From the NCBI GenBank assembly GCA_963794025.1, contig CAWCCK010000022.1, positions 120,937 to 184,936 of the forward strand: a stretch of 64,000 nt of DNA, in the 5' to 3' direction. The DNA comes from Ignavibacteriota bacterium (GTDB lineage: Bacteria > Bacteroidota > Ignavibacteria > Palsa-1295). Both the position numbers and the translations under genes were made by a program. Positions 18,582 to 63,103 of this stretch are shown here, in pieces (within the stretch, counting starts at the first letter, position 1; each line of letters opens with the position of its first letter). Under the pieces are notes generated by a model. It did not search any database and had not been told where the DNA came from. It saw nothing but the letters and a program-made list of their open reading frames with translations.

Positions 18582-18588
18582 TAATTAA

Positions 18589-18614
18589 GAATTACGAATT
18601 TCAAATTACGAATT
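18589..18614. repeat. AATTACGAATT tandem motif (2 units).
   Basis: Member of the dispersed AATTCGTAATT family (19308-19340, 31316-31342, 31933-31995, 37633-37657, 51224-51234). Confidence 0.55.
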
Positions 18615-18621
18615 GTAAAAA

Positions 18622-19308
18622 CTAAACGCTGGAAGGCGCGATAAATTTCATTCCAGCTTCTGCGTGTCTCCGCAAAAGCGTAGCTACGCGGTAACGCTCG
18701 GAACCATATTCTCCGGCGAGTGCGTCAAGGATAGCGACGATCGCTTCTGCGCCGATCTCATCGCACCACGCAAGCGGCCCTTTCGGATAATTCGTTCCGA
18801 GCTTCATCGCGGTGTCGATGTCTGCGGCCGTCGCAACAGATTCTTGTACCGCGAAGGCTGCTTCGTTAATTATCATTGCAAGCGTTCGTGGGAACACGCC
18901 AGCGATGGCATCTTTTATCTCTTCACCCGTCTTACCAAGCAATGTGAGAAACTTCCCGACAGTTTCGTTGTAGTGGCTGGGTTCCCCAGCCCGCACTCCG
19001 AAGGGAAACGAATATTCCACGCTTTTCTGTCGAGCAAAATAATGCGGCAGGATGGGCATCCCAATTATGTGCACACCTTTTTTCACAGCATGTTGCGCGG
19101 TGGTGGCGCTCAAGGTTAGCGTATTGGAAATGATGGGAACGTTGGTCTCGAATTTCGAGAGATATTCCGCTTTTTTCACAGGATCGAGAAACGTGAGGCC
19201 GAGCACAAGGTCGGGTTCGCTTGTTACGAGTTTGACATTCTCCATCCCCGAAAAATAGGATGTGAATGACGGAAGATACAGTTCATCCGCGAACAGTTGG
19301 ATTTTCAA
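18622..19308 (-). CDS. 3-hydroxyacyl-CoA dehydrogenase family protein with a divergent N-terminus lacking an obvious GxGxxG motif.
   Basis: The C-terminal segment AMKLGTNYPKGPLAWCDEIG matches the 3HCDH C-terminal domain, and the gene is adjacent to a thiolase. Confidence 0.5.
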   Translation of the reverse strand: MKIQLFADELYLPSFTSYFSGMENVKLVTSEPDLVLGLTFLDPVKKAEYLSKFETNVPIISNTLTLSATTAQHAVKKGVHIIGMPILPHYFARQKSVEYSFPFGVRAGEPSHYNETVGKFLTLLGKTGEEIKDAIAGVFPRTLAMIINEAAFAVQESVATAADIDTAMKLGTNYPKGPLAWCDEIGAEAIVAILDALAGEYGSERYRVATLLRRHAEAGMKFIAPSSV

Positions 19309-19340
19309 AATTCGTAATTCGTAATTTGAAATTCGTAATT
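19308..19340. repeat. AATTCGTAATT tandem motif (3 units).
   Basis: aaattcgtaattcgtaatttgaaattcgtaatt, in the orientation opposite to the 18589 copy. Confidence 0.55.
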
Positions 19341-25439: not shown

Positions 25440-28400
25440 TTGAACCCCAAAACACATTCCAACGAACTCCGCCTGTTCGTCTCCTCGACGTTCCGCGACC
25501 TCATGCCCGAACGCGAGCAGTTGGTGAAAAAAATCTTCCCGCGTATCCGCAAAGAGTGCCGCGAACGTGGCATCGAATTCACCGAAATTGACCTGCGCTG
25601 GGGAATAACCGAGGAAGAATCGCGCACCGGCAAAACCATTCGTATCTGCCTGGAAGAGATCGACCGCTGCCGACCGTATTTCATCGGAATTATCGGCTCG
25701 CGCTACGGATGGGTTCCCGGCATCACCGAGATCGAAAAAGACGAAGAAATGCTGAAAGAATTCCCGTGGCTCCGCGACTATGCCGCCAGCGATAAAAGCA
25801 TTATCGAAATGGAATTCGCGCATGGCGCGATCCTACGGAAAAACGACAGCGCGTTCTTTTATGAACAGGGGAACAACGATTCACAGTACTCAAATGACAA
25901 AATGGACTCAAATGACAAGTCCTTTCAGTCCATTTCGTCCCTTGAGTCCCTTAAACATACCCTTCAATCCACCGGAGTTCCCTATCGCCGCTTCACCGAT
26001 CCCGAAGAATTAGGCGAGCAGGTATTTCAGGACATCCTCACCATTCTCGACCGCGATTTTCCGCAAAAGAAAGAGATGACGCCGCTCGATCACGAACGCG
26101 CCGAGCACGAAGCGTATTCGCGGAACCGGCGGCAATCGTATGTTGCAAATCCGGAGTATTACGAGGCATTTGCAAAATATGTGGAGTCCGATGGCCCGCC
26201 GCTTATTATTTGGGGAAGATCGGGTTTGGGCAAGAGCGCGCTCATGGCGTATCTGGCGCATGAATATCAAACGCGGAACCCGAATGCCTTCGTCGTCCAG
26301 CATTTTATCGGCGCAGCCGAAGGCAGCGATCCCGAAGACGTGATGCGTCAGGTGATGATGGAAATAAAAGAACGCTATCAGCTTGCGGACACGATCCCCA
26401 CCGACGAAAACGCGCTCCGGGAAGAATTCCCAGTCTGGCTGGCGAAAGTAGGAGGGGATGGTCAGGCTGAAAGCACTGACCTACGCGTAGGTCGGCGCTT
26501 CCAGCCCGACACCCTCATCCTTTTGATCGATGCGCTCAACCAGCTTACAGGCATTGCGCCGGAAATGCACTGGCTGCCGGATTTCATTCCCGCGAATGTG
26601 CGCCTCATCGTTTCAACAACAACCGAGAGCCTTCCCCTTGCACAATTACGCGAGCGGAAGTGGAATGAATTGGAACTTCAGCCGCTAACCGAACAGCAGC
26701 GCGAAGCTATCGCGCAGGGTTTCCTGAATCGCTTTCACAAATCGCTGCCGCTGAGCGATCTGCACACGCTTTCGGCAAATCCCAAATCGTCGAGTCCGCT
26801 GTTTTTGCGGACGGTGCTGGAAGAGCTTCGCATTTTCGGGCATCACACTACGCTGCACGAAGAGCTTGAGGATTATTTAGCGAGCGCGGATGAAAGAGAA
26901 CTATTCCAGAAAGTGCTCGCCCGCATGGAGCGCGATCATGGCGAAGACGCCGTTCGTAATGTCATGACCGCCATCTGGGCGTCGCGGCACGGGCTGTCGG
27001 AATCCGAACTGATGCAGATCACCGGCAAGCCGCGCATGGAACTATCGGAACTTATGATCGCGATGGAATACCACCTCATGACCCGCGAAGGGTTCCATAC
27101 CTTCTTCCATAATTATTTGCGCGAAGCGGTGGAGATGCGCTACATGCCGGATGAAGTAGCGCGTAAAGCTGCACACGCGAAAATCGGGGAATATTTCTCC
27201 ACAAGAGAATATGGCCATCGACGAAGAGACGAAGAACCCTGGCAATGGACCGAGGCGGGTGAAAAAGAGAGGCTGATCGGATCGCTTGCCGATCTCGCTA
27301 TGCTAAATCTCTTCATACAAAGTCAGAGGACGCACGAGTTAGTTACCCATTGGGTGCATGCCGATATGGATCGTGTTGCAGGGAGTTATGCCGATTCTTA
27401 TGGCAAGTTACCGGATAATGTTGGCAATGCGGAGCGTCAAGAGCAACTGCGGAACATCGGCAAGATATTGCTGGCCGCTTCAAGGCCAATGGACGCGCAG
27501 GGGTACTTAGAGCGATCGCTTGAATTTACGCGAAAGATTCATGGAATTAAAAGCTTTCAAGCAGCGGAGGCGTTAGAAGATCTGGCTGAATTGCAATACG
27601 AACTTGCCGATTTCAATGGCGCAAAAAACTCACTGCAAGAAGCTGTTTCCATTCACGAAGAAGCGAATAGTTCACCGCTGAAAGTAGCGGCGCGCTATAG
27701 TTCCCTCGCTTCCGTTGCGTACCAGCAGCAACAGTATGAAGAGGGATTGATGTTTTGTAATAGTGCGCTTGCGGTTTTGCCCGAAGGCGGATGGGATGAA
27801 GACACATTGCGCGCTGATATTTTCACCAATATGAGCGGTTTGTATTACAGGCAAAAGAAATTGAATGAGGCAATTTCTGCTGCGGAACAGGCTGTTGAAG
27901 CTCAAAGAAATTTGCATGGCGATTCCGACAATCATACGCTGATCGCCATGAACAATCTCGCATCCATTCTCTCAGCAGCCGGTAGATATGTGGAATCGGA
28001 ACAATTGTTTCTATCCCTCATAGTAACCTTGAAAATGAATTTGGGGAAAACCCACCTTAATGTTGCTAGTGCGCTGAAAGGATTTGCTCTTGCTTTAGAA
28101 CGTGCCAATCAAATACCAAGAGCGAAGGCAGCAATTAAAGAAGCGTTAGCAATATTTCTCAAACATCTTCCATCCGATCATCCAGAACTGCTTTCTGGAC
28201 AATTGGCTGTAGGTGCCTATGAATTTCTGGAAGGCAATTTCAGTGAAGCGGAGAAAATATATCGACAATATGAACCACTTCGCGCCACCATTCTCGGCTT
28301 CACTCATCCCACTGTGCTGCGCGGCCGTGAGCGTTATATTGAAATACTTCTCGCTCTCGGCAAAAATAGAAGAAGCCTCCATGCTCAAATTGGAACTGGA

Positions 28401-28535
28401 GGCTGCTTTATAAAGACGATCAGAATTCAGAATAGAATCAAAACTACAAAAATGCTATCATCTTGTACTGCTGTCCGAAATCATTATAACAATCGAGACC
28501 GAAGCCCCGCCATTGGCAGCGTTCATGCTGGCTGA
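25440..28535 (+). CDS. TIR-like (DUF4062/STIR-type) - STAND P-loop NTPase (NACHT/NB-ARC-like) - TPR-repeat protein. This is a bacterial NLR-like candidate antiphage defence protein.
   Basis: The N-terminus RLFVSSTFRDL...ICLEEIDRC matches the TIR beta-strand and the S.WC..E catalytic-Glu motif. Walker A is GRSGLGKSALMAY and Walker B is TLILLIDALNQ. The C-terminal ~400 aa carry TPR_10/12-like repeats. An in-frame insertion of a palindromic repeat lies at 26460-26510. Confidence 0.7.
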   Translation: MNPKTHSNELRLFVSSTFRDLMPEREQLVKKIFPRIRKECRERGIEFTEIDLRWGITEEESRTGKTIRICLEEIDRCRPYFIGIIGSRYGWVPGITEIEKDEEMLKEFPWLRDYAASDKSIIEMEFAHGAILRKNDSAFFYEQGNNDSQYSNDKMDSNDKSFQSISSLESLKHTLQSTGVPYRRFTDPEELGEQVFQDILTILDRDFPQKKEMTPLDHERAEHEAYSRNRRQSYVANPEYYEAFAKYVESDGPPLIIWGRSGLGKSALMAYLAHEYQTRNPNAFVVQHFIGAAEGSDPEDVMRQVMMEIKERYQLADTIPTDENALREEFPVWLAKVGGDGQAESTDLRVGRRFQPDTLILLIDALNQLTGIAPEMHWLPDFIPANVRLIVSTTTESLPLAQLRERKWNELELQPLTEQQREAIAQGFLNRFHKSLPLSDLHTLSANPKSSSPLFLRTVLEELRIFGHHTTLHEELEDYLASADERELFQKVLARMERDHGEDAVRNVMTAIWASRHGLSESELMQITGKPRMELSELMIAMEYHLMTREGFHTFFHNYLREAVEMRYMPDEVARKAAHAKIGEYFSTREYGHRRRDEEPWQWTEAGEKERLIGSLADLAMLNLFIQSQRTHELVTHWVHADMDRVAGSYADSYGKLPDNVGNAERQEQLRNIGKILLAASRPMDAQGYLERSLEFTRKIHGIKSFQAAEALEDLAELQYELADFNGAKNSLQEAVSIHEEANSSPLKVAARYSSLASVAYQQQQYEEGLMFCNSALAVLPEGGWDEDTLRADIFTNMSGLYYRQKKLNEAISAAEQAVEAQRNLHGDSDNHTLIAMNNLASILSAAGRYVESEQLFLSLIVTLKMNLGKTHLNVASALKGFALALERANQIPRAKAAIKEALAIFLKHLPSDHPELLSGQLAVGAYEFLEGNFSEAEKIYRQYEPLRATILGFTHPTVLRGRERYIEILLALGKNRRSLHAQIGTGGCFIKTIRIQNRIKTTKMLSSCTAVRNHYNNRDRSPAIGSVHAG
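26460..26510. repeat. Inverted dimer of the 27-bp element (GGTCAGGCTGAAAGCACTGACCTACGCG / TAGGTCGGCGCTTCCAGCCCGAC), inserted in-frame inside the NLR-like gene.
   Basis: The right arm is the exact reverse complement of 3676-3702. It encodes GQAESTDLRVGRRFQPD, the same frame as the STDLR peptide from copy 32705-32731. Confidence 0.7.
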
Positions 28536-28964
28536 TATTGTGAATTGAGTATTAGTTGAGTTAGCTACAATGGAGGGTGGGATATCCCAACTCGAGAGCG
28601 AGTTATTGTAGATCGAAGTGCCAACAGTTCCAGGCGAGCCGGGCTGCGCAACCAATACCCATGTTTCGGTAACAGACGGCGCCGATTGAGAAAATGATAG
28701 TTCCAGGGTTGTGCCAACAGCAAGACCGCCCCAGCCCATGTCATCCCCACTTAGATTTGCAAGTGGAGTAGGTGCCCATGCCACAACAGGCTGCAAATAA
28801 GAAGTAGCGTCGTTGTTCAACGGCCCCTTGAATGTAATGGCGATATCGAGCGCGCAATTGAATGTTACATTCAGACACTGCGCCGAATTTCTTGCCCAGG
28901 GCGTCGCTGGTGGCTGCGCTGGTGTCATCAGCGCCACGTTGAGTGTAGGATTAGGAACTCCCAT
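28458..28964 (-). CDS. Hypothetical Ser/Thr/Asn/Ala-rich protein on the opposite strand, between the NLR-like gene and the SLOG gene.
   Basis: 168-aa ORF whose end overlaps the last 78 nt of the 25440 ORF. It has no recognisable motifs. Confidence 0.3.
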   Translation of the reverse strand: MGVPNPTLNVALMTPAQPPATPWARNSAQCLNVTFNCALDIAITFKGPLNNDATSYLQPVVAWAPTPLANLSGDDMGWGGLAVGTTLELSFSQSAPSVTETWVLVAQPGSPGTVGTSIYNNSLSSWDIPPSIVANSTNTQFTISASMNAANGGASVSIVIMISDSSTR

Positions 28965-29185: not shown

Positions 29186-29343
29186 TGTCATCCTGAGCGG
29201 AGCAAAAGTTAGTCCGCCTCAGCGGACTAACTTTTTGCGGAGTCGAAGGATCTCCGGACATTCACCGCACAGTGCAACTCCATGAGATCCTTCGACTCCG
29301 TTTTTCTCTCCTTGCGTCAAGAAAAACTCCGCTCAGGATGACA
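29186..29343. repeat. Structured palindromic element with 17-bp perfect terminal inverted repeats (TGTCATCCTGAGCGGAG ... CTCCGCTCAGGATGACA) and nested internal hairpins.
   Basis: Internal hairpins are GTTAGTCCGCctcaGCGGACTAAC and GGAGTCGAAGGATCTC...GAGATCCTTCGACTCC. It lies 43 nt upstream of the SLOG gene start. Related copies are at 1-30 and 31366-31420. Confidence 0.65.
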
Positions 29344-29385: not shown

Positions 29386-30399
29386 ATGGAAACCACCACA
29401 ACATCGCTCGAACAGATTCCCGTACACGCTGACGCCTCTATCGAATCGCCGGTGGAGCAGTTCATCGACGAGGAGCTGATCCACGCGCACCATCATAGCC
29501 ACCACGCGCTTCCGTGGACGGCGCGTCCTGCGAAGGAATCCGGCCCGCTGCCGCTTGTTATCGGCGTTTCCGGCCACCGCGATCTGCGAGATGAGGACAT
29601 CCCCAAGCTAACGGAAGTGGTGCTTGCCGAGTATGCAACGCTCCGAAAAAATTATCCTTCCACGCCGATCACGCTGCTTTCTGCGCTTGCCAATGGCGCG
29701 GATCGTCTGCTTGCGCATCTGGCGCTTAGTTCTGGAATGCGGCTTGCCGTTGTGCTTCCGATGCCCATCGATCTGTATGAAACGGATTTCGATGCGGCGT
29801 CTCTGATAGAATTTCACGAGTTGATTTCAAAGGCAGAATATTTTTCCGATCTGCCGATCATGCCGGGTCTTACGCGGGAGTTAATTAGCGTGCATGGCAT
29901 CGGCCGCGAGATGCAATACGCGCAAGTGGGCGCGTATATCGCGGCGCACAGCGCCATTCTTATCGCGCTGTGGGATGGAGTGGAACTTAATCTGGTCGGC
30001 GGCACGTCGCAGGTGGTGCGGTTCAAGCTCGATGGTATTCCGGAACCGTACGCGCCGCCGCACAGCGAACTCGACGCGCCGGATAGCGGCCCCGTCTATC
30101 ATATTGTGACGCCGCGTGCTATCAATCCCCATCCGGCACATGCGTTCACGGTGCATCGGTTGTATCCCGCCGGGTTCCGTTCCCATGTCGAAGCCGATAA
30201 AGCGTATGACGACGTGTATTCCCGCATGGAAACGTTTAACGAGGATTCTATCAAGTATTCCGAAGATCTGAAAGAACATTTCCGCGCCAGCAAGGAATAT
30301 ATGTTCCCAGCGCACGCGCATCAGTTGGTGGAGCATCATATCATATCATCGCCGGAAAAAGGAGCATGGTGCAAAAGGGAACCATCATCCGGCCAATAA
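29386..30399 (+). CDS. SLOG-superfamily (DprA/LOG-like Rossmannoid) protein, a putative nucleotide-binding sensor.
   Basis: The core LVIGVSGHRDL...LSALANGADRLLAHLALSSGMRLAVVLPMPIDLYETDF...ILIALWDGVELNLVGGTS follows the DprA/LOG pattern (Gly-rich loop after strand 1, the G..G.D..AH motif, then VVLP...YP-like). Gap to the membrane-protein gene is 13 nt. Confidence 0.55.
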   Translation: METTTTSLEQIPVHADASIESPVEQFIDEELIHAHHHSHHALPWTARPAKESGPLPLVIGVSGHRDLRDEDIPKLTEVVLAEYATLRKNYPSTPITLLSALANGADRLLAHLALSSGMRLAVVLPMPIDLYETDFDAASLIEFHELISKAEYFSDLPIMPGLTRELISVHGIGREMQYAQVGAYIAAHSAILIALWDGVELNLVGGTSQVVRFKLDGIPEPYAPPHSELDAPDSGPVYHIVTPRAINPHPAHAFTVHRLYPAGFRSHVEADKAYDDVYSRMETFNEDSIKYSEDLKEHFRASKEYMFPAHAHQLVEHHIISSPEKGAWCKREPSSGQ

Positions 30400-30412
30400 T
30401 GACCCCAATGAA

Positions 30413-31228
30413 TTGCCGCCATTATTAAAAGAAGATCTCGATTTTTACGCCATCGCCGATGTGCTTTCGCAGCGATTTCAAAAGCGCACCAAAACGACGA
30501 TCCAGTTACTGCTGACCTTCGTATTTTTCGCTGCGCTATTCTTCGAACTCTATTCCGGATTGTTCGAAGAGCCGGCGATGCTCGGGCTGTATCTGGGAAT
30601 GTTTCTTTGTTCGTTCCTCGTCTATTATTGGGCCGAGCGGCATGGTTACCAAACCCGGTACTTGGATTACCGCGCCTTAGCCGAAGGACTTCGTGTGCAA
30701 TTTTTCTGGAAATTAGCCGGAGTCGAAGATTCCGTTGCCGATTTTTACATGCGAAAACAGCGCAGCGAACTCGACTGGATCCGCAACGCCATCCGCGCCT
30801 GCATGATCGGGAACTCACAGCACAGCACCAATAAATTGCTCGATGAAGAAGCCCAGCGCGACCGCCTGAACCTTGTGCTTAAACATTGGGTGGAAGACCA
30901 GGCGAAATACTTTGCGAAAGCTGCCCACCGCGAGCACGAGGAGCTGCATGGCCGCGAGCGGATGATCTCACTGCTTTTTGGCGTCACGCTCGCGCTCGCT
31001 GCGGCGCATGTGATTTTGTTCGGTCATAAAAATGAATTTTTGTTGCTTTTAATTGGCGTGCTTCCCGTTGTTGCCGCGCTCTTGCATAGCTATCTGCAAA
31101 AAAATGCCTTTGCCGAACACAAGCGCCAGTACGACCGCATGAGCGTGTTCTATCATCGCGCAACCGTGCATTTGACTAAACTTATCGGTGAAGATCGCCT
31201 TGTGGATGCTCAGAAAATTCGTTGCTGA
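30413..31228 (+). CDS. Four-TM (2TM - helical linker - 2TM) SLATT-like membrane protein, a predicted effector partner of the SLOG protein.
   Basis: Hydrophobic helices at about residues 30-50, 55-75, 175-195 and 200-220, with a charged helical segment between them. It is co-directional with and 13 nt downstream of the SLOG gene. Confidence 0.5.
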   Translation: MPPLLKEDLDFYAIADVLSQRFQKRTKTTIQLLLTFVFFAALFFELYSGLFEEPAMLGLYLGMFLCSFLVYYWAERHGYQTRYLDYRALAEGLRVQFFWKLAGVEDSVADFYMRKQRSELDWIRNAIRACMIGNSQHSTNKLLDEEAQRDRLNLVLKHWVEDQAKYFAKAAHREHEELHGRERMISLLFGVTLALAAAHVILFGHKNEFLLLLIGVLPVVAALLHSYLQKNAFAEHKRQYDRMSVFYHRATVHLTKLIGEDRLVDAQKIRC

Positions 31229-31315
31229 ATTTGGCCGCGAAGCCCTCGTCGAAAACGGCGATTGGATTCTTTTACACCGCGATAGGCCGCTTGAAGTTCC
31301 CAAAGGAGCGTGAAT

Positions 31316-31342
31316 CAATTACGAATTACGAATTACGAATGG
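31316..31342. repeat. AATTACGAATT tandem motif (3 units).
   Basis: caattacgaattacgaattacgaatg, immediately followed by a hairpin element at 31366. Confidence 0.55.
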
Positions 31343-31365
31343 GGAATTCCGATGCAAGTACAAGT

Positions 31366-31447: not shown

Positions 31448-31888
31448 CTAAGTAGTGGTGAAACCTGTGGGTCGTTTACGAAAAATCAATCGAACCAAAA
31501 GAAAGAACCAATATATAAACCACGCTAACCAAAAAAGGCCGATAATTCCATTCGATTTCGTAGCTCCGGCGGCGATCATCGTTCCCAGAAATATCAGCAC
31601 TTTCCACCAATGAAGATGATGGGTGAAATGCGTGGCGGGAGCCTCAGCATTGGCTTCCGAATGTGGCAGCGCGCTTGACGTTTCATCAGAATGCGTTGCA
31701 TTCGGCGGCGAGATACGTCCTCGGTACGAGATGCCGGTTCCGGGAAGTCCGACGTTGCCATACGTGCCGCGTTTCCCAAGCGTAACGCTCGCGCCGCGCA
31801 CACCCACGGACGTGCTAATACCTGACCTGCTGATGTTCAAGTGAACACCAGGGATAATTTTAATGCGGCGTCTGAATCGAAGACCCAT
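31448..31888 (-). CDS. DUF4236-domain protein with a C-terminal membrane anchor.
   Basis: The N-terminus GLRFRRRIKIIPGVHLNISRSGISTSVGVRGASVTLGKRGTYGNVGLPGTGISY is the characteristic DUF4236 repeat. The C-terminus has two hydrophobic helices. Confidence 0.65.
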   Translation of the reverse strand: MGLRFRRRIKIIPGVHLNISRSGISTSVGVRGASVTLGKRGTYGNVGLPGTGISYRGRISPPNATHSDETSSALPHSEANAEAPATHFTHHLHWWKVLIFLGTMIAAGATKSNGIIGLFWLAWFIYWFFLLVRLIFRKRPTGFTTT

Positions 31889-31932: not shown

Positions 31933-31995
31933 AATTACGAATAAGGGAACACTCAGTCCCTATAATTCGTAATTCGTAACTCGTAATTCGTAATT
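31933..31995. repeat. Inverted arrangement of AATTACGAAT / AATTCGTAATT units (1 + 4 units) around a short hairpin.
   Basis: aaattacgaataagggaacactcagtccctataattcgtaattcgtaactcgtaattcgtaatt. Together with 31316-31342 it brackets the DUF4236 gene. Confidence 0.55.
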
Positions 31996-32001
31996 GCCGT
32001 C

Positions 32002-36760: not shown

Positions 36761-37647
36761 AGCGCGAATCCAATTCCAAAGCTGACGGACGTGCCGAGAT
36801 CGGGATGACGAACTGCCGCGAAGTCGGCAGTGAAGTTCCCAGTAGCGACACCAATGCCTCCGGAAATTTCTCCGGTTCCCGTATCCCCGCCCGCGCGAAC
36901 GAAGAGGTGGGAATCAATATCATATTCCGCGCCGACGTGAAAAGCAGCGTTATATTCCGCGCTCGATTCGAACGCGGCGTCCAGCGTAAGATCGTTTGTC
37001 GCACGATATGAAAGTCCAAACCATCCCACGCGATCTTCGACGGAGTCGCCATAATTATTATAGAGGCTGACGAGGTGCGTAACGGCGGCGGCAAGTGTAA
37101 GATTTGGGAACAGATCGAAACTTACGCCCAGATCCACGCCGATGTCATCAAGCGGAAGGTACTCGGAACCAAAAGTTTCCTGCGAATAGCGAATACGGAT
37201 GCCGGCCACGGCATGGCGCCTGGTAGAACTATCGCCGTCGTTAACATTCGTTCCGCCAACGGCAAATGTTCTCGATGCCTGGATGCCAAATGTTTGCCAG
37301 GAATAGGCGTCGGTCCATTGATACCGGCTGAGCGACACACCGGCAAGCCAAAGCGGATCGAGCGGAATATCCCCGGCAAATCCGGCGCTCCAGCTTTCGG
37401 GAAGTCCCAACGGCAGTGGCGAAAGCGTTGCGTGCAGATGAGATGACGTATCGACTGGGAGTGCGGGACTCGGAACCCATTCATCGCGCGCATCGGCTAG
37501 ATCGCTGCCACCGATCGCGAGTGAGCGTGGGGAATCGCTCGTAGCGCCGAAAATCTGCGCGTGCGCGATGGGAACTTCGGTCAGCGCAATAAAAAGAAAA
37601 ACGCAGAACAGGACGCGCATGGGACAAGTACAAATTACGAATGACAA
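36757..37647 (-). CDS. Outer-membrane beta-barrel protein (PorP/SprF-like or OMP_b-brl-like).
   Basis: Signal peptide MRVLFCVFLFIALTEVPIAHAQ, alternating hydrophobic beta-strand pattern, about 296 aa, ending GIGFAL. Confidence 0.45.
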   Translation of the reverse strand: MSFVICTCPMRVLFCVFLFIALTEVPIAHAQIFGATSDSPRSLAIGGSDLADARDEWVPSPALPVDTSSHLHATLSPLPLGLPESWSAGFAGDIPLDPLWLAGVSLSRYQWTDAYSWQTFGIQASRTFAVGGTNVNDGDSSTRRHAVAGIRIRYSQETFGSEYLPLDDIGVDLGVSFDLFPNLTLAAAVTHLVSLYNNYGDSVEDRVGWFGLSYRATNDLTLDAAFESSAEYNAAFHVGAEYDIDSHLFVRAGGDTGTGEISGGIGVATGNFTADFAAVRHPDLGTSVSFGIGFAL

Positions 37648-37657
37648 ATTACGAATG
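37633..37657. repeat. AAATTACGAATGA tandem motif (2 units).
   Basis: aaattacgaatgacaaattacgaatga. Confidence 0.5.
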
Positions 37658-48636: not shown

Positions 48637-50019
48637 ATGGATGAAATTGTTGAGTTTCTCCAGAGCGTACCGAGCCTGAACGCGGTTCCGCGTGAGCAGT
48701 TGGAATGGCTCGTTCGTGAATCGGAAATTATCGAGCGAGAGCCGGGAACCTGGAGTCGCCCGGGAGATTCATTCGATCATTTGCTTATACCACTGGAAGG
48801 GCGCATCGAGGCGTATGTCATCCAGAACGGGCAGAAGAAAACGCAAATGTCGAACACGCCGGGCATGATGTCGGGCCTGATTCCCTATTCCAGGATGAAG
48901 ACCTCGCCGGTCTTCACCGAAGTGTTCGGGAATTTTAGATGTCTCGCGCTGCATCGGTCGAAATTTCACGAGTTGATCGCACATTATTATGAATTGACCG
49001 AAGTGATGGTTCACGCGCTGGTCGATCGTGCCCGGCTGTTCACAACGAATCATTTTCAGAATGAGAAGTTGATGGCGCTTGGGAAGCTTTCTGCCGGACT
49101 TGCACACGAATTGAATAACCCTGCGGCGGCCGTATTGCGTAGCGCAGAAGACCTGAAACAGATCGTGGGAACGCTCGGGTCGAGCGTACGTGCTGTTACA
49201 TCGCTTCATTTTACTTCGCAGGAGATTGAAAGCCTGGGGATCATCATTGAGAAAGCTTCCCATAACGGGTCGGTACGGCTTCCACTGCTGGAACGAAAAC
49301 GTCGAGAAGGTGAAATTGCAGATTGGTTTGCCGATCACGGTATGGCGAACGATTGTGAGGTAACATTCACCGACGCCGGTATTACAGCCGATGATCTCGA
49401 TCATTTAAAACAGCATGTTTCAGAACAGGCATTTATTCCGTTCATCAATTGGTTCGGAGCACGGCTTCAGACCGAGAAAACGGTCGATGAGATCGCCGTT
49501 TCTGCGCGAAGAATTTCGGAACTTGTACAATCCGTCAAAAGCTACACGCGCATGGATCAGGCGCAGGCAATGGATTCGGTGTGTATTAACGATGGTATCG
49601 GCAACACGATCACGATGCTCGAATATAAGGCCCGCCGACAGGGCATCGTGATACATTCCGAACTCGAAAACGACCTGCCGCACATCATTGGGTTCCCAGG
49701 CGAGTTAAACCAAGTCTGGACGAATATCATTGACAATGCGATCGACGCGATGAAAGATGGCGGGGAACTGACCGTGAAAACGCACTCGTCGTCAGAGCAA
49801 GTTATTTTTGATGTCATAGATAACGGTCCCGGAATACCTCCCGAAAATCTCGAACGCATTTTCGATCCGTTCTTTACGACGAAAGATGTTGGCGAAGGAA
49901 CCGGCGTTGGTCTTGATCTTGTGCAAAAAGTGGTGCAACAGCATCATGGAAAGATCGAAGTAAATTCCCATCCGGGAAGGACGGAGTTCAGAATTGCTTT
50001 TCCAAAAGCTGCAGTATGA
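48637..50019 (+). CDS. Sensor histidine kinase with an N-terminal cNMP-binding-like domain.
   Basis: H-box [16 protein letters not shown], and HATPase N/G boxes ([28 protein letters not shown]). The N-terminal ~130 aa look like a cyclic-nucleotide-binding beta-barrel. Confidence 0.75.
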
Positions 50020-51675
50020 AACTTCCCATTATCTTCCTCATTGATGATGACCCGCAAGTGCTCCGGGCGCTTGCGAGGGATGTTCGGCAAAAATTTAAAA
50101 AGGAATATCAAATTCTGAGCACCGAAGATCCGCAGGAAGCGCTCGAAAGTTTGAAGGAACTAAAACGGACTGGTGAAGAAGTTGCGCTTTTTATTTCCGA
50201 TCAACGTATGCCGCGCATCACGGGCGTTGAACTGCTCGAACAATCGAAAACATTCTATCCCGAAGCGAAGCGGATGCTGCTCACGGCGTATTCCGATATG
50301 GATACCGCCATCCGCGCGATCAACGAAACCGATCTCGATTACTATCTGCTCAAGCCGTGGGATCCGCCGGAAGAAAAACTGTTCCCGATCATTGACGATA
50401 TGATCGATGAATGGTCGTCGAGCTATAAACCGGAACTTGCTGGGATTCGACTTCTCGGATATCAATTTTCTCCGAAGTCTCACGCGATCAAGGAATTTTT
50501 AGCGGGACATCAAATTCCCTACCAATGGATCGATGTCGAAAGCAATCCGAAAGCTGCTGAGATCATGGCGCTCCATGCGATCGCACTTGTCTCGCTTCCG
50601 GCGCTCATCTTCGAAGACGGCACGCTTAGTATCGATATCGAGATCCACGCTGTTGCAGAAAAACTTGGACTTCGGCCCACCGCAAGTTCCAACATGTACG
50701 ATGTCATCATTATCGGCGCTGGCCCGGCGGGGCTTGCGGCGGCTGTGTATGCAGGCTCGGAGGGACTAAAGACCCTCCTCGTTGAAAAACATTCCCCAGG
50801 CGGTCAGGCCGGTACGAGTTCCCGCATCGAAAACTACCTCGGGTTCCCGAAAGGTGTGAGCGGTTCCGAGCTTACGCGGCGGGCCATCACACAGGCTACT
50901 CGGTTCGGGATCGAATTCCTTACGCCGCAAGAAGTGCTGGCGATCACTTCTGCCGATTCCTACAAGACCGTTCAGCTTGCCGATGGCACCGCGATCCATT
51001 CGCGCAGCATCATCATTACGACGGGCGTAGCCTACCGTCAGTTGGAAACAAAAGGTATTGTGGAACTCACCGGAGCTGGCGTCTATTATGGCGCGGCAAC
51101 CATCGAGGCATTGCAAACGCGCGGTAAGCAAGTATATGTTATCGGCGGTGGGAACTCGGCAGGGCAGGCTGCGCTGCATCTTGCAACGTTCGCTGAACGA
51201 GTACATATCGTAATTCGTAAAGAAAGATCTGTCGGCAACGATGTCCTCCTACCTTATCGATCAGATCGGAAAAACACCGAACGTGACCGTGCTGCCGGAG
51301 ACCGAAGTCATCGAAGCGATCGGCCAGGAGCATCTCGAACAATTAGTGCTGCGAATGTCATCTGGGAAGGAATGCACAGTTGCGGCGGATGGCCTATTTA
51401 TTTTGATCGGTGCGCGGCCTTATACCGATTGGGTCAAATCCGATATTTTGAAGGACGACCGTGGATTTATCATTACCGGTCGTGACCTTCTTGCTCGCGA
51501 TTCGTTCAAAGCCGCATGGCCGCTCAAGCGCGATCCCTATTTGCTCGAAACGTGCAGCCCGGGAATTTTTGCTGCGGGCGATGTTCGTTCCGGAGCGATG
51601 AATCGCGTAGCCAGCGCCGTCGGCGAAGGCGCGATGGCCGTTAGTTTCGTTCACCAATATCTGGCCGAAGTTTGA
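50016..51675 (+). CDS. Response-regulator receiver - Cys-less glutaredoxin-like domain - thioredoxin-reductase-like flavoprotein fusion, with an apparent frameshift at about 51225-51240.
   Basis: REC domain with phospho-accepting D in FISDQRMP. Middle domain SPKSHAIKEFLAGHQIPYQWIDV...LPALIFEDG has a Grx fold but no CxxC. TrxR motifs are YDVIIIGAGPAGLAAAVYA and VIGGGNSAGQAALHL. The C-terminal TrxR part (GDVRSGAMNRVASAVGEGAMAV) continues in ORF 51241-51675 after a frame break inside gtaattcgtaaagaaag. Confidence 0.65.
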
Positions 51676-58855: not shown

Positions 58856-59305
58856 CTACCCTAAACGCGGATCGACGGGCAAATCTTCCACACTCACAAT
58901 TTCAATAGTGCGAGCGTGAGGATGAGAAGGATTAATTACGATATTATCTTCTTCACGAATGATGACGGAGGGAACCCGCATCGCCAGGAACTTAGCTGCG
59001 CGAAGAAAATCATCTCCAATGCGCTGACTGATGGCGGTCTGCGGGCGCTCGTCCCATCCAACGGGTAAATCGGCTAATTCTATTTTTCGGATATGCGCTC
59101 CCTGTGGTAAACGAAGTTTAACGAGCACCAGGTCACTCGGAAGGATCGTCGAATGAGCCAGCACTTCGAGCAGTGCGAGCGAGGGAGAAATAGAAGTATA
59201 GAGCATCGCGCTTCCAGCAGAATTCCATCGGCCTCCATCGAGGCGCGATCCTTTTCCGGTCACGTCATCGGCATACGCCCGTTTGGAAACCCGATAGACG
59301 ATCAT
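58856..59305 (-). CDS. RES-domain toxin (MbcT/Res-like, predicted NAD+-targeting).
   Basis: Conserved R...E...S arrangement (GGRWNSAGSAMLYTS ... LALLEVLAH); 149 aa. The antitoxin gene lies immediately upstream. Confidence 0.65.
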   Translation of the reverse strand: MIVYRVSKRAYADDVTGKGSRLDGGRWNSAGSAMLYTSISPSLALLEVLAHSTILPSDLVLVKLRLPQGAHIRKIELADLPVGWDERPQTAISQRIGDDFLRAAKFLAMRVPSVIIREEDNIVINPSHPHARTIEIVSVEDLPVDPRLG

Positions 59306-59796
59306 TAATACACGCCGTATTCAATGCGTGTCAACTCGGCCTTGACAACCTGCATTCCTGTGGTGGTATCCAGCAGTTCGTTCGGGGAAGTATTTCCTAA
59401 TGAGAAACTCGGAGCGCCGAGCCACATCTTGAATTTTTCTTCGCTTCCAAAAACTTCCCGCCCGCGCTCCACGATCTGAGCTACTAAGAGCGCGCGCTCT
59501 GTCGAGGTAGAATCCATAACCGAATTCTCCTTTCGATACCGTTGGATCGTGCGCGGTGTAATTTGAAGGAACCGCGACCACTCTTCATTCGAAAATTTCG
59601 ACGCCTCCTGAATCTGCTCGAGCTGACGCCCGCGAATACCATGTTTCGATTCCTCGATCATTTCCATCGGACTTAGCGTTGCGGCCCATCGCAGAATATG
59701 CCTGTTGCGCAGCGTCTTTGCATGAGTGGCGATACGTTCTTTTTTCAAAGGAGTGCGTGCTTTGCGTGGAAAGGCGACTGCTTTTTTGGTTAACAT
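59305..59796 (-). CDS. Xre/MbcA-like antitoxin (DUF2384 C-terminal domain) partner of the RES toxin.
   Basis: The C-terminus FKMWLGAPSFSLGNTSPNELLDTTTGMQVVKAELTRIEYGVY matches the DUF2384 pattern. It abuts the RES gene. Confidence 0.6.
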   Translation of the reverse strand: MLTKKAVAFPRKARTPLKKERIATHAKTLRNRHILRWAATLSPMEMIEESKHGIRGRQLEQIQEASKFSNEEWSRFLQITPRTIQRYRKENSVMDSTSTERALLVAQIVERGREVFGSEEKFKMWLGAPSFSLGNTSPNELLDTTTGMQVVKAELTRIEYGVY

Positions 59797-61928: not shown

Positions 61929-63103
61929 GTGTGCGTCTGCATGATCTATCTCGATAACGCCGCCACCACCCCGCTTGCGCCAGAAGTGCTGGATGCGATG
62001 CGCCCATTTCTTACAGAGGAATTCGGCAATGCATCCAGCGTCCATCAGCTTGGCGCGCGCGCGCGAGTAGCGATAGAATCTGCACGCGATACCGTTGCCC
62101 GCGCCATCAATGCCGAACCGCGCGAGATCGTATTCACTTCCGGCGGCACCGAAGCCGATAACGCCGCCATCAAAGGCGCGATCTTTAAGCAATATGCCGC
62201 ACTTAAAGATTGGAGTAAAATAAAAATCGTTACCAGCAAAGCAGAACATCTCGCCGTGCTCGAACCCATAGAATGGTTCTGCGGAACTTGGCGCTTCAGT
62301 CACTTACGTCCCTGTAAGTCCTTTTGGTCATGCAAAAGTAGAACGCCAACCAAATAACCGGCGACACTACGCTTGTTTCTCTCATGATGGTGAATAACGA
62401 AACCGGCGCAATAAATCCCATCTCCGAAATTATAAAAATCGTAAAAGCGAATTCCAACGCGCTCGTTCACACGGACGCGGTGCAAGCATTAGGAAAAATT
62501 CCCATTGATGTAAAGGCATTGGGAATTGATCTCCTCTCGCTTTCCGCGCATAAAATTCATGGACCGAAAGGCATCGGCGCGCTCTATATCAAAAGCGGAA
62601 CGCCGTGGGAACCGCTCCTGCATGGCGGATCGCAGGAACGCAACCGCCGCGGCGGAACGGAATCCGTCGCGCTTGCTGTCGGATTCGCGGAAGCAATAAA
62701 GCGATTACCCTCTCCCCACTGGGGGAGAGGGCAGGGTGAGGGGGGTGTTGCTTCACTAAGAACTTATCTTCTAACGAAACTCGCCCAATTTCCTGAAATA
62801 GTTCTTAATTCCGCAACGGACGAAAGTTCCGTCGATTCCATCGTGAACTTCACTTTCACAAACGAAGTGCTTGCGCGCTTGGATGCCGACGCGCTCATCA
62901 TTCGCTTCGATCTTGAAGGAATTGCGGTATCGAACGGCTCGGCCTGCACCTCCGGCAGCCAGCAGCCATCGCATGTCCTGCTCGCAATCGGCAAATCGAA
63001 AGAGGTTGCGAGTAAATCCGTGCGCGTATCGTTTTCCCGCTATAATACGGTGGAGGATATCGACCGGTTGGTTGAGGTGGTCGGGAAAATTATTGGGAAT
63101 TGA
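61929..63103 (+). CDS. Cysteine desulfurase (IscS/NifS family) interrupted by two close +1 frame breaks (about 62283 and about 62345) and carrying an in-frame palindromic-repeat insertion.
   Basis: N-terminal part MIYLDNAATTPL...FTSGGTEADNAAIKG in frame A. The middle LGASVTYVPVSPFGHAKVE is in a second frame. The C-terminal part TGDTTLVSLMMVNNETG...SAHKIHGPKGIGALY...CTSGS is in a third frame. Confidence 0.7.
62708..62746. repeat. Palindromic element CCCTCTCCCCActGGGGGAGAGGGcagggtgagggggg embedded in-frame in the cysteine desulfurase CDS.
   Basis: Encodes PSPHWGRGQGEGG. It resembles widespread CCCTCTCCCC...GGGGAGAGGG-type intergenic repeats. Confidence 0.55.

Follow-up and report, generated by a model that had tools for sequence, protein, structure and literature searches.

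The 64,000-nucleotide (nt) stretch of DNA analyzed here, hereafter the window, belongs to an Ignavibacteriota bacterium (GenBank assembly GCA_963794025.1, contig CAWCCK010000022.1, positions 120,937 to 184,936 of the forward strand). Its segment 29386-31313 on the forward strand is one gene that encodes one protein of about 640 amino acids (aa) and is broken by two one-base frameshifts. The protein joins a SLOG domain to a membrane module with four transmembrane (TM) helices and is referred to below, together with its family, as SLOG-4TM. The class to which the window gene belongs, that of the TIR-associated SLOG-4TM effectors, had been predicted before; the gene is a divergent member and may be defective. 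We consider it fairly probable that the SLOG-4TM family is the effector arm of a Thoeris-like pathway, i.e., a membrane effector gated by a NAD-derived signal. Its ligand binding, membrane disruption, and anti-phage activity are what we infer by analogy with ThsA, whose SLOG domain binds the cyclic ADP-ribose (cADPR) isomer 3′cADPR, and with ThsH, a SLATT effector that responds to cADPR. As for the initial annotation of this DNA, its domain calls stand, its gene model does not, and its idea of a connection with TIR signaling finds support at the level of the family.

One gene for a SLOG-4TM protein

Two open reading frames (ORFs) are visible in the assembled sequence, ORF1 at 29386-30399 (337 aa) and ORF2 at 30413-31228 (271 aa, with a TTG start), separated by a gap of 13 nt. 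Both ORFs, their spacing, and the motifs quoted from them in the initial annotation were all re-found in the window sequence, but their interpretation as a sensor gene and a separate effector gene has to be abandoned: nearly all relatives have one fused gene, and the window copy carries two frameshifts. When full-length homologues were aligned with the window by tblastn, they traversed three frames, 29422-30339, 30335-31213, and 31212-31310, and the true stop of the gene is the TGA at 31311-31313, not the one at 31228. The first segment (29386-30339, forward strand) encodes about 50 aa of an N-terminal extension that is specific to the clade, then the SLOG domain (approximately nt 29548-30165), and a helical linker. 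The second (30335-31213, forward strand) encodes the linker followed by the membrane module, with its four TM helices as two 2TM hairpins, and the third (31212-31313, forward strand) encodes the conserved C-terminal tail FVAEFGREALVENGDWILLHRDRPLEVPKGA and ends with the stop codon TGA at 31311-31313. The corrected gene model is therefore that of one fused sensor-effector protein, of which the window copy may be broken or mis-assembled.

Repair of the frame gives a product of 641 aa, which was aligned with 83 full-length homologues (alignment A1, 84 sequences). The tail, which is read in the next frame after the ORF2 stop and runs to its own stop codon, turned out to be the most conserved segment of the whole family. 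Its identity to the tails of the three nearest relatives is 85-91%, and G616, E618, A619, L620, E622, N623, D625, W626, H630, R631, and R633 are nearly invariant in the 84-sequence alignment. These 33 C-terminal residues are missing from ORF2 as called, having been severed by the second frameshift.

A search of about 5.8 billion proteins with ORF1 as the query gave 220 matches, and 99 of the 120 best were proteins of 540-590 aa with the membrane part included; as a rule, the homologues are single chains of about 560-590 aa. In a scan of GTDB genomes, relatives were found to be encoded in at least 560 stretches, the best 80 loci of which were analyzed; a metagenome scan contributed another 80 loci. 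The repaired protein matched as a single high-scoring segment pair (HSP) in one frame at 77 of the 80 best genome loci, with a frame change only in L063 (L numbers denote related loci), and as a single HSP at 76 of the 80 metagenome loci. Over both scans, the reading frame is uninterrupted in 153 of 160 related loci. The nearest relatives are metagenome-assembled genomes (MAGs) of Ignavibacteriota, L005, L006, and L007, with 80%, 73%, and 71% identity, respectively; all three genes are intact and encode about 620-665 aa. The SLOG domain is fused to the 4TM module in every full-length family member. A two-component module in which a 4TM SLATT effector is encoded apart from a soluble SLOG sensor, as the two ORFs 13 nt apart in the assembly and a few likewise split database entries (P0018+P0122, P0025+P0141, and fragments of P0004) might suggest, is extremely improbable and largely refuted: related loci read as one frame in 153 of 160 cases, the split cases examined are each interrupted at another point (L001 and L002 by frameshifts, in error-prone long-read contigs where many genes are split, and L086 by an in-frame TAA inside TM1), ORF2 as called lacks the conserved tail that runs on in another frame, and AlphaFold2 gives the fused chain as one compact assembly with a predicted template-modeling score (pTM) of 0.87.

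The AlphaFold2 model of the repaired chain, based on alignment A1, has a mean predicted local distance difference test score (pLDDT) of 88.2 along with the pTM of 0.87, and it is poor only at residues 1-43 and 332-338. The N-terminal domain of the model is a three-layer α/β Rossmannoid superposable on known SLOG structures. Because Foldseek agrees, the modeled domain is assigned to the SLOG fold of the YpsA/DprA kind. The DprA/LOG-type Rossmannoid core earlier attributed to ORF1 thus stands as a fold, of the YpsA/DprA kind, but it falls short of the curated threshold of the SLOG hidden Markov models (HMMs). The sole SLOG match of ORF1 in Pfam is YAcAr, with an E-value of 0.041 and 14.1 bits vs. 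a cut-off of 28.2. YAcAr is matched by 9 of the 84 family members at E ≤ 0.01 (best 6.9e-4), and the family sequence profile gave nothing above chance-level matches against the PDB.

Several residues of the SLOG domain stand out in the 84 sequences. G60, G63, and H64 (GVSGHR) are invariant and form the glycine-rich loop after strand 1; A102 and G104 are likewise invariant, with E103 and D106 nearly so (the consensus is AEGADR, the window has ANGADR). W196 is invariant and G205, G206, and T207 are conserved (WDG...GGT), which corresponds to the C-terminal GGxGT-like motif. The position of the Glu in the ‘PGGxGTxxE’ motif of LOG is occupied by another residue, the window sequence being GGTSQVV. 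Because the catalytic Glu of LOG is absent, the sequence suggests that the SLOG domain is a sensor, presumably ligand-binding, rather than a LOG-type hydrolase.

A hydropathy scan located four hydrophobic segments in ORF2, at nt 30506-30562, 30575-30631, 30965-31021, and 31040-31096. They form two hairpins in the repaired protein, at aa 374-392/397-415 and 527-545/552-570, with loops of 4-6 residues and long flanking helices. The hydropathy scan and the helices of the AlphaFold2 model thus bear out the 2TM-linker-2TM architecture that had been proposed for the ORF2 product. The C-terminal half is all-helical in the model, and no similar solved membrane protein was found for it. Pfam matches of ORF2 are DUF4231 (E 3.4e-5, aa 19-96), which we take to be a member of the SLATT clan, SLATT_1 (E 3.8e-4, aa 160-242), and SLATT_3 (E 2e-3), while the NCBIfam models SLATT_3 and SLATT_1 match with E of about 2-3e-5. 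For ORF2 alone, DUF4231 scores 24.7 bits, which is exactly its cut-off, and SLATT_1 and SLATT_3 score 20.9 and 18.9 bits vs. 26.3. On the full protein, SLATT_1 scores 19-21 bits vs. 26.3, and every SLATT/DUF4231 match is below threshold. Across the family, SLATT_1 matches 38, SLATT_3 29, and DUF4231 26 of the 84 family members, at consistent positions, and these matches in ORF2 and in the family support the SLATT-like 4TM nature of the module. Since SLOG and SLATT HMMs are matched only below threshold, the family represents a divergent subfamily of SLOG/SLATT proteins. A comparison of the two 2TM modules for internal duplication gave a weak and unconvincing match (E 0.0024, probability 12%).

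Origin of the two frameshifts

The first frameshift site (30335-30349, forward strand) is an (ATCAT)x3 repeat in a hypervariable linker rich in His, Lys, and Arg, where the HSP edges fall at 30339 and 30335. The frame-2 peptide YHRRKKEHGAKGNHH downstream of it fits the linkers of the intact L005-L007. An alternative placement in the A5 run at 30356-30360 was dropped in favor of 30335-30349 after comparison with these linkers. The seven residues affected sit in the disordered, low-pLDDT linker of the AlphaFold2 model. The second site (31209-31213, forward strand) has one extra base, at 31212, in ‘CAGAAAATTCG’. The DNA alignment shows a single-base gap there in all three relatives, L005, L006, and L007, and the frame change in tblastn occurs at 31212-31213. 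Programmed frameshifting is rejected, since a single frame runs uninterrupted through the gene in all close relatives. With one or four copies of ATCAT at 30335-30349 the sequence would be in frame, and the relatives do not have the repeat; slipped-strand ON/OFF switching at (ATCAT)x3 is conceivable.

Assembly error and real decay stand at roughly even odds. The former, to which we give an even chance, means that both frameshifts arose as errors in the consensus of a long-read metagenome assembly and that the SLOG-4TM gene of the organism is intact and functional. The window is probably a long-read assembly, because its nearest relatives are MAGs with MFD isolate names and ‘contig_N’ contig names. 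In line with this, the window contains further broken genes (a Pyr_redox_2 gene, a class-V aminotransferase gene, and possibly the 3′ end of the STAND gene described below), and at several of its breaks, as at 31212, a single base has been gained in an A-rich run. Related contigs, apparently from the same project (ERZ250395xx; ‘contig_N’), are full of split genes, and the close relatives L005-L007 are intact. On the other hand, L006 and L007 share with the window about 13.7 kb of further syntenic coding sequence, in which there are zero frameshifts vs. two in this 1.9-kb gene, and the first site is (ATCAT)x3 and no homopolymer. The family, moreover, decays in nature, as follows from independent inactivating lesions in other members, including a nonsense codon in the short-read scaffold L086.

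Real decay, with a chance slightly below even, would make the window copy a pseudogene, left behind when this lineage inactivated a toxic effector of abortive infection. This would account for two independent lesions in one gene with intact syntenic neighbors, for the loss of the most conserved protein segment through the second of them, and for the inactivation of other members at other positions (L063, L086). It is harder to reconcile with the breakage of apparent housekeeping genes in the same assembly, or with the absence of further decay between the lesions, where the aa identity to relatives is 72-78% and the correct frames contain no stops.

The Pyr_redox_2 (thioredoxin-reductase-like) gene, which also encodes a response regulator, is split into two overlapping ORFs on the forward strand, 50016-51485 and 51241-51675. 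They correspond to profile positions 1-176 and 195-291, with a one-base shift at about 51222 in ‘CGTAAAGAAAGATCTG’. The class-V aminotransferase gene (cysteine-desulfurase-like) is broken into 61929-62357 and 62384-63103, also on the forward strand, which match positions 1-106 and 146-371 of Aminotran_5. Its middle part is in a third frame, implying two shifts within about 80 nt (near 62275-62345). In L086:891-2687, a short-read forest-soil scaffold, the in-frame TAA in TM1 of the SLOG-4TM gene is independent of the lesions of the window.

Genomic neighborhood and proposed signaling role

The context of the gene was compared over 163 loci (83 loci plus 80 independent metagenome loci), TIR neighbors being detected with an HMM built from the neighbor TIRs. 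A TIR_2 gene lies within 5 kb at 60 of the 163 loci, mostly at less than 350 nt and on the same strand. The first set contributes 26 of its 83 loci (20 of these within 1 kb) and the metagenome set 34 of its 80 (30 of these within 350 nt). TIR_2 proteins directly beside the SLOG-4TM gene were seen by neighbor-ORF clustering and Pfam scans. At 10 loci, which represent at least five lineages in several phyla, a homologue of the DUF4062-NACHT-TPR protein of the window is encoded next to the SLOG-4TM gene. Loci of this kind are L006 and L007 (Ignavibacteriota), L036 (Kapaibacterium; 13-40 nt downstream), L082 (Natronincola peptidivorans, about 60 nt), L068 (Binatus, divergent orientation), and L051, L054, L111, and L114 (Gammaproteobacteria-like). 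Because the STAND-linked members are scattered among TIR_2-linked ones in the family dendrogram, the NADase partner must have been swapped repeatedly in the evolution of the family. The link to TIR-derived nucleotides that had been raised as a possibility thus gains support from the TIR_2 flanks and the DUF4062-STAND homologues. It is weaker in the window than in L036 or L082, since the two genes are not operonic here.

The third recurrent neighbor is a RyR-domain protein, encoded 33-170 nt from the SLOG-4TM gene at 10 of the 83 loci, sometimes together with TIR genes (L043 (6187-7968), L045, L047, L073, L081, L066, L031, L055, L021, and L024). These neighbors include K+ channels (Ion_trans_2-TrkA_N-RyR) and AAA-RyR proteins. 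In animals, cADPR gates ryanodine receptors. A second, tandem SLOG-4TM copy is present in L003 and L023, the extra copy of L003 being frameshifted. A gene for a TIR_2-DUF4190 membrane protein is located directly upstream, and the surroundings of L003 include genes for CHAT-TPR, peptidase C11, and nSTAND proteins as well.

In the window itself, a gene at 25440-28535 on the forward strand encodes a DUF4062(NIR)-NACHT-TPR STAND protein (Avs-like; Pfam DUF4062 4e-14, NACHT 1.9e-6, TPR_12 1.6e-29). An adjacent TIR-STAND gene had been reported; a STAND gene is indeed located upstream, but in place of a canonical TIR it carries DUF4062, or ‘NIR’, a TIR-like NADase domain. The domain covers approximately aa 11-130 and contains the motif S120-I-I-E123-M-E125, which it has in common with the homologues in L068, L082, and L054. 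In the PDB, it matches the DUF4062 domain of TEP1 by sequence with an E-value of 6.3e-22. A comparison of DUF4062 with TIR_2 by hhalign, using small alignments of our own, was not significant (probability 0.3%). The description of DUF4062 as a TIR-like NADase that gives ADP-ribose (ADPR) and nicotinamide rests on two preprints (10.64898/2026.05.01.722283, 10.64898/2026.09.04.749371). The STAND gene is a candidate signal generator or else an independent NADase defense gene. The last approximately 60 codons of its ORF (28359-28535) have no counterpart in L006 and L007 and overlap a convergent ORF at 28458-28964, and the +1 frame after the A5 run at 28362 reads KIEEASMLKLELEAAL followed by a stop codon, ending at 28411. 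The true 3′ end of the gene may be 28411, after a probable indel in the A run at about 28362. The STAND proteins of the window and of L007 (L007:4204-7239) share about 71% identity over aa 1-676, which span the DUF4062, NACHT, and helical part, and their C-terminal TPR regions are unalignable. This divergence fits a rapidly diversifying sensor domain.

In the proposed mechanism, phage infection would activate a TIR-type NADase whose gene lies beside the SLOG-4TM gene. As a rule this would be a small TIR_2 protein; its place would be taken by a DUF4062/NIR-NACHT-TPR STAND protein in certain lineages, that of the window among them. The NADase would make a NAD-derived nucleotide, for example ADPR or a cyclic or modified form of it, and this signal would be bound by the cytoplasmic SLOG head. 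The 4TM body might then oligomerize or open, membrane integrity would collapse, and the infection would be aborted. The predicted layout comprises the cytoplasmic SLOG domain, the helical linker, the two 2TM hairpins, and the conserved cytoplasmic tail. A more specific proposal, which we regard as rather unlikely, is that the product (ADPR or a derivative) of the NIR-STAND protein, an NLR-like bacterial sensor whose head is a TIR-like NADase, serves as a second messenger for the separately encoded SLOG-4TM protein, besides the draining of NAD+. If true, this would constitute an ‘NLR → small molecule → membrane-disrupting helper’ relay, analogous to the plant TNL → EDS1 → ADR1/NRG1 relay. One effector family would in that case take its signal from TIR_2 or NIR-STAND proteins interchangeably, and RyR proteins, K+ channels among them, would be further co-encoded responders.

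A number of observations weigh against a role of SLOG-4TM as a Thoeris-like effector. No SLOG or SLATT HMM reaches its curated threshold on the full protein, and PADLOC-DB v2 gave zero matches at E ≤ 1 for ORF1, ORF2, the STAND protein, and two neighbors. No TIR, NIR, or RyR partner is encoded within 5 kb of the SLOG-4TM gene at roughly half of the 163 loci, among them L005, the nearest of the intact relatives, and, from the metagenomes, the relatives L087-L093. The STAND gene of the window is 850 nt away from the SLOG-4TM gene with an opposite-strand ORF between them, so the two are not operonic; the distance is 2.8 kb in L006, and operonic coupling is absent in this clade. Because its reading frame is broken twice in the assembly, the window copy as sequenced could not make the full protein, and it may be non-functional. 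Two ‘SLOG and 4TM’ systems gave no defense in Escherichia coli (10.64898/2025.12.03.692087). Finally, characterized DUF4062 proteins act unaided in depleting NAD+ to ADPR, with no requirement for a partner (10.64898/2026.05.01.722283, 10.64898/2026.09.04.749371).

The proximity of the DUF4062-STAND and SLOG-4TM genes in the window could be a defense-island or syntenic coincidence, with the STAND protein acting alone as a NAD+-depleting Avs and the SLOG-4TM protein alone or with a distant partner, a possibility that we take seriously while holding it somewhat doubtful. It would agree with the fact that PsAvs2-type DUF4062-STAND-TPR proteins defend on their own, with the 0.85-2.8 kb, containing other ORFs, that separate the two genes in the window, L006, and L007, and with the half of all loci that are partnerless. 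The gene order is the same in the window, L006, and L007, namely TPR protein, DUF4062-STAND, further ORFs, SLOG-4TM, and penicillin amidase. In L005 and L002, the SLOG-4TM gene occupies this chromosomal site too, but the STAND gene is absent. Coincidence is, however, difficult to square with the recurrence of the same pairing in unrelated phyla and in different gene orders, with same-strand junctions of 13-63 nt in L036 and L082. Furthermore, the pairing alternates with TIR_2 partners inside one protein family, and DUF4062 is rare and patchy in bacteria.

It seems improbable that the SLOG domain is an enzyme making or degrading a nucleotide signal, or that the protein works as a nucleotide-gated channel in a housekeeping role. 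N-glycosidases do occur among the SLOG clades (LOG), the polar residues H64, R65, E103, D106, R107, and T207 are highly conserved, the chromosomal position is stable over five Ignavibacteriota genomes, and PADLOC gives no match. Nevertheless, the catalytic Glu of LOG is not conserved, and the nearest structural relative, YpsA, belongs to a clade tied by the literature to the sensing of cADPR variants. As is typical of conflict systems, the family is strongly linked to TIR genes, has a patchy phyletic spread, and is often inactivated. A signal-gated membrane effector is the reading that we prefer.

The repeats around the gene had been described as mobile-looking and as bracketing it, which holds only in a loose sense. 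A nested palindromic intergenic element of 158 nt (29186-29343, with arms TGTCATCCTGAGCGGAG) does lie upstream, 43 nt 5′ of the start codon, and a half copy of it lies downstream, from 31366. The large inverted repeat, in contrast, brackets a DUF4236 gene (31448-31888, reverse strand; Pfam DUF4236 3e-25), which is flanked by inverted (AATTACG)n heptamer arrays at 31316-31348 and 31964-31996, outside the SLOG-4TM gene. The palindrome motif has 5 matches in the window vs. 0.37 expected, and the 158-nt element and its half copy look like small intergenic elements of the repetitive extragenic palindrome or miniature inverted-repeat transposable element (REP/MITE) type. For the heptamer AATTACG and its complement, 12 matches were counted vs. 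0.01 expected, often in inverted pairs around single genes; the arrays occupy five intergenic sites (18586-18612, 19304-19337, approximately 31313-31348, approximately 31964-31996, and 37629-37655). The idea of a composite or mobile island is unsupported, because no transposase or integrase was identified among the ORFs examined around the SLOG-4TM gene and the locus is syntenic in L005-L007, the repeats being dispersed and intergenic. A mobile-element reading was rejected on the same evidence. Rfam gave nothing meaningful in the locus at its E-value threshold and nothing window-wide at gathering scores, no tRNA was found, and a promoter and terminator scan performed no better than on shuffled sequence. 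The window contains another NAD+-targeting conflict module, a RES-domain toxin with an Xre/MbcA/ParS-type antitoxin (58856-59305 and 59305-59796, reverse strand).

Relation to known systems

Burroughs et al. reportedly made, in 2015, a computational and generic prediction of nucleotide-centered conflict systems that combine a SLOG sensor with a SLATT 2TM pore-forming effector, often with TIR. The SLOG-4TM family embodies the same concept as those SLOG-SLATT systems and is divergent, with HMM matches below threshold. Papers of the Aravind group repeat the 2015 prediction, with SLATT as a membrane effector regulated by ADPR derivatives and YpsA-like SLOGs as sensors of cADPR variants. In type I Thoeris the SLOG domain of ThsA binds 3′cADPR, and in type VII the SLATT effector ThsH is activated by canonical cADPR (10.64898/2025.12.03.692087). 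The same preprint, from the Sorek laboratory, lists ‘SLOG and 4TM’ beside TIRs as a putative Thoeris effector with no type number (Tables S1 and S2). The earlier statement that modules of this kind remain largely untested is out of date, as the SLATT effectors of type VII Thoeris have been experimentally validated and ‘TIR + SLOG and 4TM’ has been tried (10.64898/2025.12.03.692087). TIRs embedded in Avs/STAND proteins were removed from that survey, and the DUF4062-STAND pairing thus lies outside it. Three 2026 preprints present DUF4062 as a TIR-like NADase and mention no SLOG or SLATT partner; PsAvs2 (DUF4062-STAND-TPR) defends on its own. The two TIRs that the Thoeris survey lists for ‘SLOG and 4TM’ (Ca. 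Nitrospira nitrosa, Streptomyces GKU 895) had no close match among the TIRs in the family loci; a protein search with them returned only TIRs of 55-64% identity, and on the single contig that was inspected the surroundings were different.

The recurrent pairing with DUF4062/NIR-STAND and RyR-domain proteins appears to be the sole part that is undescribed. The former suggests that this newly recognized NADase family, whose domain is also found in human TEP1, NWD1, and NPHP3, might signal and not only deplete NAD+, and the RyR-domain neighbors hint at further nucleotide-responsive partners. In general, the family, encoded in species genomes and in metagenome contigs (more than 560 of each), offers a clear and testable effector class for TIR signaling, for which the sole reported tests, made in a heterologous host, had a negative outcome.

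Among the characterized proteins, PsAvs2 has the same DUF4062-STAND-TPR architecture as the neighbor in the window, which keeps the S-x-x-E-x-E motif; the characterized DUF4062-STAND proteins (PsAvs2, Swarozyc, and human TEP1 are named) act alone via NAD+ depletion. The nearest structural relative of the SLOG domain of the family is YpsA of Bacillus subtilis (PDB 2nx2). YpsA, DprA, ShosA, and LOG, which serve in cell division, DNA processing, Shosta defense, and cytokinin activation, respectively, are soluble proteins that have no membrane module and share 13-21% sequence identity with SLOG-4TM. The ‘SLOG and 4TM’ effector of the Thoeris survey, possibly of the same family, bears the same architecture label, has a TIR gene directly adjacent, and is a predicted signal-activated membrane effector. 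ThsA (SIR2-SLOG) shares with SLOG-4TM the SLOG domain as the presumed receptor of a TIR-made ADPR derivative, whereas SLOG-4TM has no SIR2 domain and its SLOG domain is structurally nearest to YpsA and DprA, ThsA not being among the top PDB matches. ThsH, in turn, shares the SLATT-type membrane module as the presumed killing device. SLOG-4TM differs from both in that the two modules are fused in one chain, the membrane part of which consists of two 2TM hairpins.

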